The position numbers were made by a program, and so were the translations under genes. Source: a virus (lineage: Duplodnaviria > Heunggongvirae > Uroviricota > Caudoviricetes). Taken from it: a stretch of DNA of 5,989 nt. Numbering within the stretch: the stretch's first letter is position 1; each line of letters opens with the position of its first letter. This document shows, one piece after another, positions 2,621-5,989 of the stretch. The DNA is taken from the IMG/VR virus record IMGVR_UViG_2534682173_000012; one strand, written 5' to 3'. Below the pieces are notes generated by a model. It made no database searches and was not told where the DNA came from. It saw only the letters and a list, made by a program, of their open reading frames with translations.

Positions 2621-5600
2621 ATGGCAGTAAAGATTTCAGGTGTACTGAAAGACGGCACAGGAAAACCGGTACAGAACTGCACAATCCAGCTGAAAGCAAA
2701 ACGTAACAGCACCACGGTGGTGGTGAACACGCTGGCCTCAGAAAATCCGGATGAAGCCGGGCGTTACAGCATGGACGTTGAGTACGGTCAGTACAGCGTT
2801 ATTCTGTTGGTGGAAGGATTCCCGCCGTCACATGCCGGGACCATCACCGTGTATGAAGATTCTCAACCCGGTACGCTGAATGATTTTCTCGGTGCCATGA
2901 CGGAGGATGATGCCCGTCCGGAGGCACTGCGCCGTTTTGAACTGATGGTGGAAGAGGTGGCGCGTAACGCGTCCGTAGTGGCACAGAACACGGCAGCCGC
3001 GAAGAAGTCAGCCGGCGATGCCGGCACATCTGCCCGTGAGGCGGCAACCCATGCGACTGATGCTGCAGGCTCAGCACGCGCAGCCAGCACGTCAGCCGGA
3101 CAGGCCGCTTCGTCGGCTCAGTCAGCGTCTTCCAGCGCAGGAACGGCATCAACAAAGGCCACTGAAGCCTCAAAAAGTGCTGCCGCTGCAGAGTCCTCAA
3201 AAAGCGCGGCAGCTACCAGTGCCGGTGCGGCGAAAACGTCAGAAACGAATGCTGCAGCGTCACAACAATCAGCAGCCACTTCTGCATCCACCGCGACCAC
3301 GAAAGCGTCAGAAGCTGCCACCTCAGCCCGGGATGCGTCGGCTTCAAAAGAGGCAGCGAAATCATCAGAAACGAACGCATCCTCGAGCGCCAGTAGCGCA
3401 GCTTCCTCGGCAACGGCGGCAGGCAATTCCGCGAAGGCGGCAAAAACGTCCGAGACGAACGCCAGGTCTTCTGAGACGGCAGCGGGACAGAGCGCCTCAG
3501 CTGCGGCAGGCTCAAAAACAGCGGCTGCGTCGTCTGCCAGTGCCGCGTCAACAAGTGCCGGGCAGGCCTCAGCCAGTGCCACCGCCGCCGGAAAATCGGC
3601 AGAAAGTGCTGCATCGTCCGCTTCAACAGCCACAACGAAGGCTGGCGAAGCCGCTGTACAGGCCAGCGCAGCAGCGAGGTCTGCTTCCGCAGCGAAGACA
3701 TCCGAAACGAATGCGAAAGCGTCGGAAACCCGTGCAGAATCCTCAAAAACGGCAGCCGCATCGTCCGCCAGTTCGGCAGCGTCATCGGCATCATCTGCGT
3801 CTGCTTCAAAAGATGAGGCGACCAGACAGGCGTCAGCAGCGAAGGGCAGCGCCACGACGGCATCCACGAAAGCAACAGAGGCGGCAGGCAGTGCGACGGC
3901 GGCATCTCAGAGCAAAACTACTGCTGAATCCGCTGCGACCCGTGCGGAAGCTGCTGCTGATCGTGCTGAAGAGATTGCCGGTGCAGTTGCGATGGAAGAC
4001 GCAAGCCTTACAACTAAAGGTGTTGTGAAACTTAGCAGTGCTGTTGATAGCACCAGTGAATCGCTGGCGGCAACGCCAAAGGCAGTAAAATCAGCCTATG
4101 ACAATGCAGAGAAACGTCTGCAGAAAGACCAGAACGGCGCTGATATACCCGATAAGGGACGCTTCCTGAACAACATTAACGCGGTCAGTAAAACAGACTT
4201 TGCTGATAAGCGTGGTATGCGTTATGTGCGGGTTAACGCTCCTGCAGGTGCAACATCTGGAAAATATTACCCTGTTGTTGTTATGCGTTCTGCTGGCTCA
4301 GTAAGCGAACTGGCATCAAGGGTCATTATCACCACGGCAACGCGACCCGCAGGCGATCCGATGAATAACTGCGAGTTTAACGGATTTGTTATGCCTGGTG
4401 GCTGGACTGACAGGGGGCGTTATGCTTATGGAATGTTCTGGCAATATCAAAACAATGAACGAGCCATCCACTCAATAATGATGAGTAATAAGGGCGATGA
4501 TTTGCGCTCTGTGTTCTATGTTGATGGCGCTGCTTTCCCTGTTTTTGCGTTTATCGAAGATGGCCTGTCAATATCCGCACCTGGTGCTGATCTCGTTGTT
4601 AATGATACGACCTATAAGTTTGGGGCAACAAATCCGGCGACTGAATGTATCGCGGCGGACGTTATCCTTGATTTTAAGAGTGGGCGTGGTTTTTATGAGT
4701 CTCATTCGTTAATCGTTAACGATAACTTGTCGTGCAAAAAACTTTTTGCCACAGACGAAATTGTAGCGCGTGGTGGTAATCAGATTCGAATGATAGGTGG
4801 GGAGTATGGGGCATTATGGCGTAATGATGGCGCTAAAACTTACCTGCTGCTTACCAATCAAGGTGATGTTTATGGTGGCTGGAATACATTAAGACCGTTT
4901 GCTATTGATAACGCAACCGGCGAACTGGTTATTGGAACCAAACTGTCCGCAAGTCTGAACGGTAATGCATTAACAGCAACAAAGCTGCAAACGCCAAGAC
5001 GGGTTTCTGGTGTTGAGTTTGATGGTTCCAAAGATATTACTTTAACCGCCGCGCATGTGGCTGCTTTTGCCAGAAGGGCAACGGATACATATGCCGATGC
5101 GGATGGTGGCGTTCCCTGGAATGCCGAATCAGGCGCTTACAATGTCACCCGCTCTGGCGACAGCTATATTCTGGTTAACTTCTATACCGGAGTCGGAAGT
5201 TGCCGGACCCTGCAGATGAAGGCGCATTACAGAAATGGTGGTCTGTTCTACCGTTCTTCAAGAGATGGCTATGGTTTTGAGGAAGACTGGGCAGAAGTTT
5301 ATACCTCGAAAAATCTTCCACCAGAAAGCTACCCAGTCGGCGCACCAATCCCGTGGCCATCAGATACCGTTCCGTCTGGTTATGCCCTGATGCAGGGGCA
5401 GACTTTTGACAAATCTGCCTACCCGAAACTTGCTGCCGCTTATCCGTCAGGCGTGATCCCTGATTTGCGTGGCTGGACGATTAAGGGCAAGCCCGCCAGT
5501 GGTCGTGCCGTATTGTCTCAGGAACAGGACGGCATAAAATCGCATACCCACAGCGCCAGCGCATCCAGTACGGATTTGGGGACGAAAACCACATCGTCGT

Positions 5601-5989
5601 TTGATTACGGCACTAAATCCACGAATAACACTGGTGCGCATACCCATAGTTTAAGTGGCAGCACGAATGCAGCTGGTAATCACAGCCATAGAGATGGCCG
5701 TCGATTTAACCCCAGTGTTTTTAAAGATACTTATCAATATGGTTATACAAGCTCAGGTCAAAATACCTGGGGTGTACAAGGCTCAGTAGGTATGTCTACG
5801 GGGTGGTTAGCGAATACCAGTACAGATGGTAATCATAGCCATTCACTGTCCGGCACAGCAGCATCTGCAGGTGCACACGCGCATACTGTCGGTATTGGTG
5901 CTCATACGCACTCCGTTGCGATTGGTTCACATGGACACACCATCACCGTTAACGCTGCTGGTAACGCGGAAAACACCGTCAAAAACATC
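2621..5989 (+). CDS. stf: Side tail fibre protein Stf, 3'-partial (no stop before window end; at least 1123 codons)
   Basis: Hand translation of frame 2 from ATG 2621 has no stop through 5989, and the ORF track (which lists only ATG-to-stop ORFs) shows no frame-2 ORF here, consistent with that. N-terminus [62 protein letters not shown] matches the lambdoid Stf N-terminus as I recall it. Later come [20 protein letters not shown], a tail-collar-like segment ([50 protein letters not shown]) and repeated H-x-H motifs. Weak SD (gggg) 5 nt upstream of the ATG. Confidence 0.9.
2990..3990 (+). repeat. GC-rich low-complexity region of stf encoding an Ala/Ser/Thr-rich shaft with degenerate internal repeats
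   Basis: About 330 codons that are almost entirely A/S/T/K/E/G. The motif AAK(T/S)SETNA recurs four times (nt about 3228-3263, 3353-3385, 3431-3470, 3690-3730). Codon periodicity (GCN/TCN/ACN) creates long spurious ORFs in other frames and on the opposite strand. Confidence 0.6.

Follow-up and report, generated by a model that had tools for sequence, protein, structure and literature searches.

A coiled-coil rod of few length classes as the probable identity of the Ala/Ser/Thr-rich shaft in a lambda-type side tail fibre gene

The window analyzed here, the whole stretch of 5,989 nt from a virus of the Caudoviricetes, contains an stf-like gene whose long Ala/Ser/Thr-rich shaft raises the questions of what structure it encodes, whether its repeated DNA makes the fibre vary in length, and whether the long open frames that overlap it are genes. 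Our analysis indicated, with a probability of approximately 0.9, that nt 2981-3988 encode the known three-stranded alpha-helical coiled-coil rod (PCoil, proximal) of the lambda-type side fibre. The Ala/Ser/Thr stretch is real, but it is an ordinary feature that has already been described.

The stf-like frame starts from the ATG at position 2621 (MAVKISGV...) and remains free of stop codons for 1123 codons up to the window end; it is preceded by fragments of J and by lom. [quoted passage not shown] The closest complete genome is 97.9% identical, and its gene is annotated as stfR with tfaR directly after it; since the window ends ahead of the stf stop codon, tfa lies outside our view. The protein WP_012565077 differs from the window ORF by 14 amino acids across 1123 residues, and 11 of the 14 differences are located within the first 119 residues. 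J is disrupted in the window's prophage, which therefore may not make virions. The modules of the gene and the overlapping frames are listed in Table 1.

Table 1. Positions of the fibre gene, its modules and repeats, and the alternative frames in the window.
Feature	Positions	Strand	Basis or remark
stf/stfR-like side tail fibre gene	2621..5989	+	3' end open; ~10 codons missing relative to the 1133-aa StfR of E. coli ECO8855
N-terminal virion-attachment domain (collar / PfN / phage_tail_N), aa 1-134	2621..3022	+	PF08400, E 6e-72; description in PMC12617516
Coiled-coil start, aa 102-120, in the heptad phase of the shaft, with large hydrophobics	2924..2980	+	Translation; AF2 helix from aa 99
Probable Ala/Ser-core rod, 48 uninterrupted heptads x-x-S-A-x-x-A, aa 121-456	2981..3988	+	Periodicity, AF2; homologues in PMC3368898 and PMC12617516
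AAKTSETNA copy 1, aa 203-211	3227..3253	+	Plasmid-borne fibre with unrelated N-terminus joins the shaft here
AAKSSETNA copy 2, aa 245-253	3353..3379	+	Left crossover site of the 336-nt deletion allele
AAKTSETNA copy 3, aa 273-281	3437..3463	+	Motif scan, DNA repeat family
Segment of 15 heptads absent from lambda Stf, aa 304-408, 315 nt	3530..3844	+	Present in window; microhomology only at junction
AAKTSETNA copy 4, aa 357-365, followed by degenerate KASETRA, aa 366-372	3689..3736	+	Right crossover site of the 336-nt deletion allele
Rod end and conserved hinge segment, common to Mu tail fibre protein S	3980..4183	+	PDB 5yvq at aa 454-521
T4 gp34-like trimerisation domain	4607..4951	+	Pfam PF21446 at aa 663-762; PDB 4uxe/5nxf at aa 706-777
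Collar domain and T4 gp37-type His-x-His needle / receptor-binding tip	5324..5989	+	PDB 2xgf, E 9.6e-78, aa 902-1123; Pfam Collar, Phage_fiber
336-aa Arg/Gln/Pro-rich ORF (81 Arg), +1 frame relative to stf (frame 3 of the original prediction)	3018..4028	+	Composition by-product
249-aa antisense shadow ORF, phrog_560, equivalent to lambda orf206b	3118..3867	-	Shares wobble positions with stf
230-aa antisense ORF (-2 frame)	3213..3905	-	Open because NCT|A codon junctions are depleted

The 336 codons of the shaft (codons 121-456) specify 127 Ala, 79 Ser, 40 Thr, 21 Lys, and 20 Glu residues, so that Ala/Ser/Thr account for 73% and Ala/Ser/Thr/Lys/Glu for 85%. The remaining positions are occupied by Gly (few), Gln, Arg, Asn, and Asp, with only two Val, one Ile, and one His; Leu, Met, Phe, Trp, Tyr, Pro, and Cys are entirely lacking. 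The original prediction described approximately 330 codons as nearly all Ala/Ser/Thr/Lys/Glu, and this bias is real, although "nearly all" is slightly overstated. The strict 7-residue period, an organizing principle that had been overlooked, is evident in 48 heptads of the pattern x-x-S-A-x-x-A, which follow one another in a single phase without a break. Position 7 is Ala in 47 of the 48 heptads (98%), position 3 is Ser in 77%, and position 4 is Ala in 71%; the power spectrum of the shaft showed peaks at 3.5 and 7.0 residues of 17-43, compared with a 99th percentile of approximately 9 in shuffles. Larger repeat units of 42 or 84 residues were also sought in the window allele and rejected, as no lag rose convincingly above shuffles that preserve the heptad columns (maximum z of approximately 2.7 in 28 tests).

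An intrinsically disordered, low-complexity Ala/Ser/Thr linker would agree with the extreme composition bias and its seven missing residue types, with the finding that no Pfam model matched the shaft, and with the moderate confidence of the AF2 model. However, a linker of this kind gives no reason for the maintenance of one phase over 48 heptads, for Ala in all but one of the 48 seventh positions, or for the occurrence of most indels in multiples of 7, and homologues of the shaft are helical and trimeric in solution (PMC3368898) and form a trimeric bundle by cryo-EM (PMC12617516). We consider disorder extremely improbable.

The AF2 single-chain model placed helices at aa 99-381 and 395-473 (mean pLDDT 65, helices mostly 70-84) and predicted no beta strands between aa 99 and 473. 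A beta-structured shaft, such as a triple beta-helix or beta-spiral like those of T4 gp12/gp34/gp37 or the adenovirus shaft, was among the options listed in the original prediction, and other modules of the window protein have beta-structured domains of T4 fibres as homologues. The beta-helix option did not survive: strands are absent from the model, the period is 3.5/7, there is no alternating hydrophobic/Gly-Pro pattern in a shaft with zero Pro and few Gly, and experimental data show homologues to be helical (PMC12617516, PMC3368898). This alternative is almost certainly wrong.

The two predicted helices are separated by a fold-back of the chain at aa 382-394. Ala at every seventh residue is the signature of the antiparallel Alacoil, and the shaft carries Ala at nearly every seventh residue, as would be expected if its chains were folded back into Alacoil-like hairpins rather than extended in a parallel trimer. 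AlphaFold3 likewise folded full-length lambda Stf, but that folded model conflicts with cryo-ET of extended fibres with one hinge (PMC12617516), and the stalk length of PfN-PCoil determined by rotary shadowing fits an extended coil (PMC3368898). A fold-back is, moreover, the expected artefact of modelling one chain of a homo-oligomeric coil, and we take that at aa 382-394 to be such an artefact. Hairpins are therefore very unlikely, and the extended coiled coil is the reading that we follow below.

The shaft named in the original prediction was thus correct, and specifically would be an alpha-helical coiled coil in which three parallel chains wind into a left-handed bundle. Helicity and the trimeric state have been shown for homologues in the literature and, by analogy, would apply to the window protein. 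The core would consist of nearly all small residues, with Ala at a (position 7), Ser at d (position 3), and Ala mostly at e. We infer this a/d assignment from an alignment with T7 gp17 and from the hydrophobic residues found in the same positions at both rod ends. A PDB sequence search with the shaft alone returned only this T7 gp17 match and no solved structure covering the rod; the alignment is weak (E 0.03) but extends ungapped and in phase over 96 residues (gp17 residues 172-267), in which position 7 is taken by A/S/T and position 3 reads F, F, N, W, F, F, Y, S, S, S, S. At the rod ends, the core positions are occupied by F106, V113, and V120 (position 7) and M109 (position 3) on the N-terminal side and by V456 and L463 (position 7) on the C-terminal side, as read from the translation. 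These few in-phase heptads with Phe, Val, Met, Ile, or Leu in the core may act as end clamps. An Ala/Ser core over 48 heptads is nevertheless unusual and atypical of a stable coiled coil.

In the proposed fibre, the rod would join the N-terminal collar, clamped on the tail tube/tip junction, to the hinge, distal to which the gp34-like and gp37-like domains would bind the receptor. The rod length would then set the reach of the receptor-binding tip, at approximately 50 nm for 336 heptad residues if fully helical, and the window rod would be 15 heptads (approximately 16 nm) longer than that of lambda. The K(T/S)SETNA heptads would present conserved surface patterns, with K at b, E at e, and N at g.

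The closest characterized relative is Stf of Ur-lambda, whose side tail fibres are present on the virion as trimers and accelerate adsorption; its model comprises a collar (residues 1-91; PDB 9e7m/9mgh), a linker, a proximal coiled coil (residues 102-393) seen as a trimeric bundle by cryo-EM, and a hinge (PMC12617516). The window gene occupies the same position and encodes a near-identical collar (E 6e-52 over aa 1-94, the collar fold proper, against Ur-lambda Stf 1-94 in PDB 9e7m), the same Ala/Ser/Thr heptad shaft with K(T/S)SETNA motifs, and the hinge, and apart from one indel, the 15 heptads that are extra in the window allele (aa 304-408), each residue of one shaft has its counterpart in the other. 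After the hinge, the window protein, which is of the Rac/StfR type (approximately 1133 aa), bears Mu-S-like and T4 gp34-like modules, whereas lambda Stf (774 aa) has neither.

A second group of relatives is formed by EPclA/B of EHEC prophages, in which CD (Tm of approximately 50 C), SEC-MALLS, and rotary-shadowing EM established that PfN-PCoil is an alpha-helical trimer (Ghosh et al. 2012, PMC3368898). The heptad of EPcl PCoil is Ala-X-X-Ala/Ser-X-X-Ser, and its lengths differ by multiples of 7 (PMC3368898). In EPclA/B, as in the window protein, the PfN domain is followed by Ala/Ser-rich heptads, and the EPcl PCoil is almost devoid of Leu and Ile; however, it covers approximately 110-140 residues, is Glu-rich and only "loosely" periodic, and leads into collagen (PMC3368898), whereas the window coil covers 336-344 residues, is strictly periodic, and leads into a hinge and beta-structured fibre domains. 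One relative in our allele set (L101) has a PfN-coil-collagen architecture exactly like that of EPcl. The rod of T7 gp17 (residues ~150-270; PDB 7boz/7ey9) resembles the shaft in its small residue at each seventh position and a shared SE(T/V)NA motif, but aromatic residues fill its d position in the N-terminal half, its adaptor is unrelated, and it is approximately one-third as long. A literature search for the "SETNA" motif gave irrelevant matches only.

Exactly four AAK(T/S)SETNA copies are present, as predicted (aa 203, 245, 273, and 357; nt 3227, 3353, 3437, and 3689), all spaced by multiples of 7, and KASETRA at aa 366 represents a fifth, degenerate copy. Shorter reiterations include SASAA (three times), TAAASSAS (twice), and TAAASSASS (once). 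The imperfect direct repeats noticed in the DNA correspond to a 26-nt family around the motif, with four copies at 85% identity and one at 69%; other repeat families in the shaft reach 60-76% identity. Repeats are above chance, since five pairs shared at least 22 of 26 identities, compared with a mean of 0.28 (maximum of 2) in 200 shuffles that keep the codon content of the heptad columns. Tandem Repeats Finder detected no tandem array in 2621-5989.

To collect alleles, we combined loci from IMG/VR and GTDB with 50%-identity representatives; protein searches with the N-terminal domain or the shaft alone were of little use for lengths because nearly all retrieved proteins were partial, at contig ends. 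In alleles with both the N-terminal anchor and the hinge, the anchor-to-hinge distances were 232, 239, and 344 residues, all equal to 1 mod 7, together with singletons at 341 and 348. Differences that keep the phase amounted to 7, 105 (at two independent sites), and 112 residues, and one allele (L120) carries a one-heptad deletion. The phase-breaking singletons differ by +4 and -3 residues. A TSAS duplication (L041) and an SSA deletion (L080) are small and slippage-like. The existence of alleles with +4 and -3 residues indicates that the heptad phase is not absolutely required; such changes fit the "stutter" that coiled coils are known to tolerate.

The 232-residue class carries a 336-nt in-frame deletion, the crossover of which lies within GCAGCGAA, where motif copies 2 and 4 begin. 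The ends of the lambda-type 315-nt indel share no extended homology, only microhomology, which indicates that some length changes are not repeat-mediated. The short class appears to be reached by three independent routes, namely the loss of aa 134-238, aa 304-408, or aa 246-357. The window allele is the longest common form of the rod: 63 of the 72 unique shafts sampled are equal in length, and among 5426 complete E. coli genomes the long form was found as a single ungapped match in 3662 and the lambda-type short junction in 246. The unequal recombination and length variation proposed originally are consequently borne out by discrete length classes and by one deletion crossover inside motif copies; the length polymorphism of stf is limited to a few classes, mostly in phase, and the gene is not hyper-variable.

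These data also bear on the possibility that the shaft is a contingency locus, in which repeats would drive frequent slippage in repeat number and switch the fibre length fast. The excess of repeats over chance and the slippage-like changes in L041 and L080 are in its favor, but the repeats are neither perfect nor tandem (identity of at most 85% over 26 nt), most unique shafts are equal in length, the long form is ungapped in the majority of the E. coli genomes, and the length classes are few and old enough for many substitutions between them. Such a locus is highly improbable.

Fibre genes of P2, Mu, P1, lambda, and T4 are reportedly mosaics formed by the horizontal exchange of modules, as described by Haggard-Ljungquist et al. 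in 1992 and Sandmeier in 1994. The window protein is likewise modular, and its parts have different relatives (lambda for the collar, Mu S for the hinge, and T4 gp34 and T4 gp37 for the distal domains). A plasmid-borne fibre with an unrelated N-terminus has the same shaft from motif copy 1 onward, that is, the shaft but not the N-terminus is common to both, which represents a swap of the N-terminal domain. What distinguishes the window shaft from the mosaics described is that the position of one junction can be assigned to a particular heptad motif within a coiled coil. The K(T/S)SETNA heptads are the longest near-identical DNA stretches in the shaft and would thus act as sites at which deletions, insertions, and module swaps cross over in phase. 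A joint reading, which we put forward tentatively and regard as rather doubtful, is that they are conserved in-phase recombination joints for whole-heptad length changes and swaps of the virion adaptor, that rod length is selected for approximately 34 or 49 heptads, and that the rod is an extreme Ala-a/Ser-d trimeric coil with hydrophobic end clamps.

All three alternative-frame ORFs named in the original prediction are present (336, 249, and 230 aa), and their open runs and substitutions fit its interpretation of them as artefacts of composition. In the stf frame, variable sites at the three codon positions numbered 58/64/216, and 3144 synonymous substitutions were counted against 1170 non-synonymous ones; the codon-position pattern and the synonymous excess indicate that selection acts on stf. 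The frame of the 336-aa ORF showed 404 synonymous and 3935 non-synonymous substitutions, its open run was equalled or exceeded in 24% of codon shuffles, and it had no PHROG match.

The 249-aa antisense ORF has more in its favor as a real overlapping gene that constrains the sequence: it is open in all 71 of 71 alleles (at least 262 codons), it matches its PHROG family end to end (E 1.8e-122), and its synonymous/non-synonymous ratio (3045/1306) is similar to that of stf. That ratio, however, follows automatically from the third codon positions that this frame has in common with stf, and 28% of stf-shaft codon shuffles gave an equal or longer open run. The PHROG family has no function and may stem from repeated automatic annotation of the shadow ORF, and the sense protein, a proven component of the virion (PMC12617516), accounts for the heptad pattern. 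A gene on this strand is most unlikely. The 230-aa antisense ORF appeared anomalous at first, since none of 1000 codon shuffles produced an equally open run (synonymous-shuffle p of 0.004), but its openness was traced to a depletion of codon junctions (Table 1) that stf also shows outside its repeats. The ORF is disrupted in 25 of the 71 alleles, and we rejected it as a gene.

Existing knowledge of fibre biology is unchanged by these findings. The rod is the segment at which new receptor-binding parts are joined, both naturally and in engineered fibres such as chimeric lambda STFs (PMC11338833). Our results matter for the design of chimeric fibres and of fibre reach, for which a strict heptad array, natural junctions at K(T/S)SETNA, and the tolerance of whole-heptad length changes may provide rules. 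They also point to a problem of annotation, in that an antisense shadow ORF of the rod is perpetuated under the name of a protein family (phrog_560, lambda orf206b).

The window contains the right-hand end of a lambdoid cluster of tail genes. The ORF that begins at nucleotide 2621 is a Rac/StfR-type side tail fibre gene; downstream of phage_tail_N, its product carries the Pfam domains Gp34_trimer, Collar, and Phage_fiber. The top complete-genome match (97.9% identity) is annotated with J, lom, stfR (1133 aa), and tfaR, and the window protein differs from its StfR at 14 of 1123 residues. Relative to the closest StfR (L119), the first 119 residues (2621-2977) hold 11 of the 14 differences and the other 1004 only 3; this clustering suggests that a recombination boundary lies close to where the rod begins. 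When compared with the intact J of Escherichia coli ECO8855, the window J had lost 1 nt at approximately 1073 and 65 nt at approximately 1401, and it carried an exact tandem duplication of 95 bp at 1666-1855 (100% identity). Since each of these lesions shifts the frame, J resembles a pseudogene, unless the assembly is in error there; stf is intact.

Features of the window and of its side tail fibre protein
Feature	Position	Remark
J, C-terminal parts	41-1846	split across three reading frames
lom	1957-2556	Ail_Lom, E 3e-120
Side tail fibre ORF	2621-5989	ATG (MAVKISGV...), 1123 codons without a stop up to base 5989
phage_tail_N	aa 1-134	Pfam, E 6e-72
Ur-lambda Stf collar match	aa 1-94	solved structure 9e7m, E 6e-52
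Rod	aa 121-456 (2981-3988)	
AAK(T/S)SETNA, copies 1-4	aa 203, 245, 273, 357	
Fifth motif heptad	aa 366	degenerate, KASETRA
Mu protein S match	aa 454-521	PDB sequence comparison
T4 gp34 match	aa 706-777	PDB sequence comparison
T4 gp37 tip match	aa 902-1123	2xgf, E 1e-77
249-aa ORF	3118-3867, -	end-to-end phrog_560 match, E 1.8e-122

The original prediction placed a degenerate-repeat shaft rich in Ala, Ser, and Thr at 2990-3990 (aa 124-457) of stf. The fibre-domain matches and the allele comparison bear out this attribution and its predictions, and the composition, the four motif copies, and the imperfect DNA repeats were all observed. Residues 121-456 comprise 127 Ala, 79 Ser, 40 Thr, 21 Lys, and 20 Glu, and a residue count found no Leu, Met, Phe, Trp, Tyr, Pro, or Cys among them. 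The DNA repeats are 85% identical over 26 nt round the motif and 60-76% elsewhere, and a search of the shaft for a tandem array detected none. The repeats exceed chance: five pairs with at least 22 of 26 identities were found, whereas shuffles preserving the codon content of each heptad column gave a mean of 0.28.

Every spacing between repeat copies in the shaft DNA is a multiple of 21 nt, and the four motif copies are 42, 28, and 84 residues apart. When aa 121-456 are set out seven to a row, they give 48 heptads of the pattern x-x-S-A-x-x-A, all in a single phase, with Ala at position 7 in 47 of the 48, Ser at position 3 in 77%, and Ala at position 4 in 71%. The power spectra of Ala, Ser, and Thr peaked at 3.5 and 7.0 residues (17-43, versus a shuffle 99th percentile of approximately 9); no longer period stood out in the shaft once the heptad was accounted for. 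A single-chain AlphaFold2 model (mean pLDDT 65) was helical at aa 99-381 and 395-473, with a fold-back within the most Ser-rich stretch.

The shaft is the coiled-coil rod of the fibre, which has been described previously for lambda-type side fibres. In the earlier of two studies, the homologous "PCoil" region of EHEC prophage fibres was alpha-helical by CD, melted near 50 C, was trimeric by SEC-MALLS, and appeared as a stalk by rotary shadowing; it is rich in Ala and Ser, nearly lacks Leu and Ile, follows the heptad Ala-X-X-Ala/Ser-X-X-Ser, and differs in length by multiples of seven (PMC3368898). Later, cryo-EM, cryo-ET, and AlphaFold3 divided Ur-lambda Stf into a collar (1-91), linker (92-101), proximal coiled coil (102-393), and hinge (394-422), with a trimeric bundle attached to three collar domains in the map (PMC12617516).

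The T7 gp17 rod was the only solved-structure sequence that resembled the shaft (E 0.03); 96 residues aligned without gaps and with the heptads in phase. In T7 gp17, shaft position 7 is occupied by A/S/T, position 3 by F,F,N,W,F,F,Y,S,S,S,S, and position 4 mostly by Arg/Lys in the N-terminal half and by Ala in the C-terminal half. If the phase is extended N-terminally in the window protein, position 7 falls on F106, V113, and V120 and position 3 on M109; at the far end of the rod, position 3 falls on I452 and position 7 on V456 and L463. From this alignment and these hydrophobic residues, we infer that a is position 7 (Ala) and d is position 3 (Ser), which would put the motif K at b, E at e, and N at g. 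The rod would then be a trimer that has an Ala/Ser core and, at both ends, hydrophobic heptads, and its 336 heptad residues would span approximately 50 nm at 0.148 nm per residue.

Total Stf length ranged from 473 to 1176 aa across 80 IMG/VR loci with a near-identical N-terminal domain, most of which ended the shaft at the same residue. Measuring all unique shafts that had both the fixed N-terminal anchor (MVEEVARNA) and the hinge (..VA[LM]ED) revealed length polymorphism, as the original prediction had anticipated. The anchor-hinge distance was 344 residues in 63 of 72 shafts, 239 in three, 232 in three, and 341, 348, and 91 in one each, the last in a 239-aa protein. The three main classes (344, 239, and 232) are all 1 mod 7, and the underlying changes are distinct: aa 304-408 (15 heptads) are missing from the lambda and 767-aa alleles, approximately aa 134-238 (likewise 15 heptads) from protein P0137, 112 residues (16 heptads) from protein P0135, and one heptad from the plasmid fibre L120, while locus L041 duplicates TSAS (+4) and L080 has lost SSA (-3). 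Among 50%-identity representatives sharing the phage_tail_N-type N-terminal domain, the detectable heptad run was approximately 23-344 residues; run lengths peaked near 232-239 and at 344, and the window allele belongs to the longest class. Across the lambda indel, 3662 of 5426 complete E. coli genomes carry the long form and 246 the lambda-type junction. Some relatives with the same N-terminal domain have very different rods (L101, L102/L103); in that of L101 (2528-3802), which is of the EPcl type, collagen-like Gly-X-Y repeats follow a short coil.

In the DNA of L121, of the 232-residue class, the left flank of motif copy 2 was matched up to GCAGCGAA, beyond which the right flank of copy 4 was matched. 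The 232-residue class thus carries an in-frame deletion of 336 nt, and the crossover lies within the repeat. This supports, for at least one event, the proposal that the repeats favour unequal recombination and length variation; however, the length classes are few, other routes exist (the lambda-type indel ends share microhomology only), and the stf locus is not hypervariable. The 111-kb E. coli plasmid NZ_CP020118.1 encodes a fibre of 1761 aa (L120 3222-8507) with an unrelated N-terminus, in which a domain search found no phage_tail_N. Starting at the first AAK(K/T)SETNA and continuing through the hinge, the identity of this fibre to the window protein is approximately 99%. This fibre ends in a Peptidase_S74 chaperone, and the J upstream of it is disrupted by IS1. 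In Escherichia ruysiae and a related species, the motif (K[TSK]SETNA) is present in seven copies that lie 14, 28, and 49 residues apart (L102/L103 from 6001).

The three alternative-frame ORFs in the shaft (336, 249, and 230 aa) are best read as artefacts, as originally proposed. Among 71 unique same-length alleles, variable sites at stf codon positions 1, 2, and 3 numbered 58, 64, and 216, with 3144 synonymous and 1170 non-synonymous substitutions. The openness of the +1 frame (the 336-aa Arg-rich ORF) was reached in 24% of codon shuffles and that of the -1 frame (249 aa) in 28%; the apparent synonymous excess of the latter arises because it shares wobble positions with stf. The -2 frame (230 aa) was more open than all 1000 shuffles because NCT|A codon junctions are depleted, which removes TAG from one antisense frame. 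Two such junctions were observed in the shaft (2981-3988) versus 10.4 expected, and five versus 14.2 in the 666 non-repetitive C-terminal codons of stf (3989-5988); moreover, the 230-aa ORF is interrupted in 25 of the 71 alleles. The family matched by the 249-aa ORF, phrog_560 ("unknown function"), looks like one assembled from shadow ORFs, and "orf206b" of the lambda GenBank record (L118 1998-2618, -) is the counterpart of this ORF; the artefact has thus become entrenched in databases.

Lambda-type stf also occurred in assemblies labelled Desulfosporosinus, Leeuwenhoekiella, Pseudomonas, Shewanella, Oceanobacillus, Kitasatospora, Bradyrhizobium, and others (L083-L099, L104, L107, L109, L113-L114, and L116). 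Their stf contigs were often of low coverage, four were approximately 48 kb, and every gene-spanning locus encoded the 401-aa product of the frameshifted lambda orf-401; these are almost certainly lambda DNA contamination. Most database relatives were partial proteins ending at contig edges (P0007, P0035, P0039, and P0032), indicating that stf is often an assembly break-point, and some N-terminal fragments were evidently misnamed ("short-chain fatty acid transporter", "peptidase S74").

For a rod of a known kind, our analysis adds modest increments: how strict and how long the heptad array of the window allele is, a reasoned a/d assignment, the mapping of in-phase indels with one crossover placed in the motif, a module junction located there too, and a shadow-ORF family.
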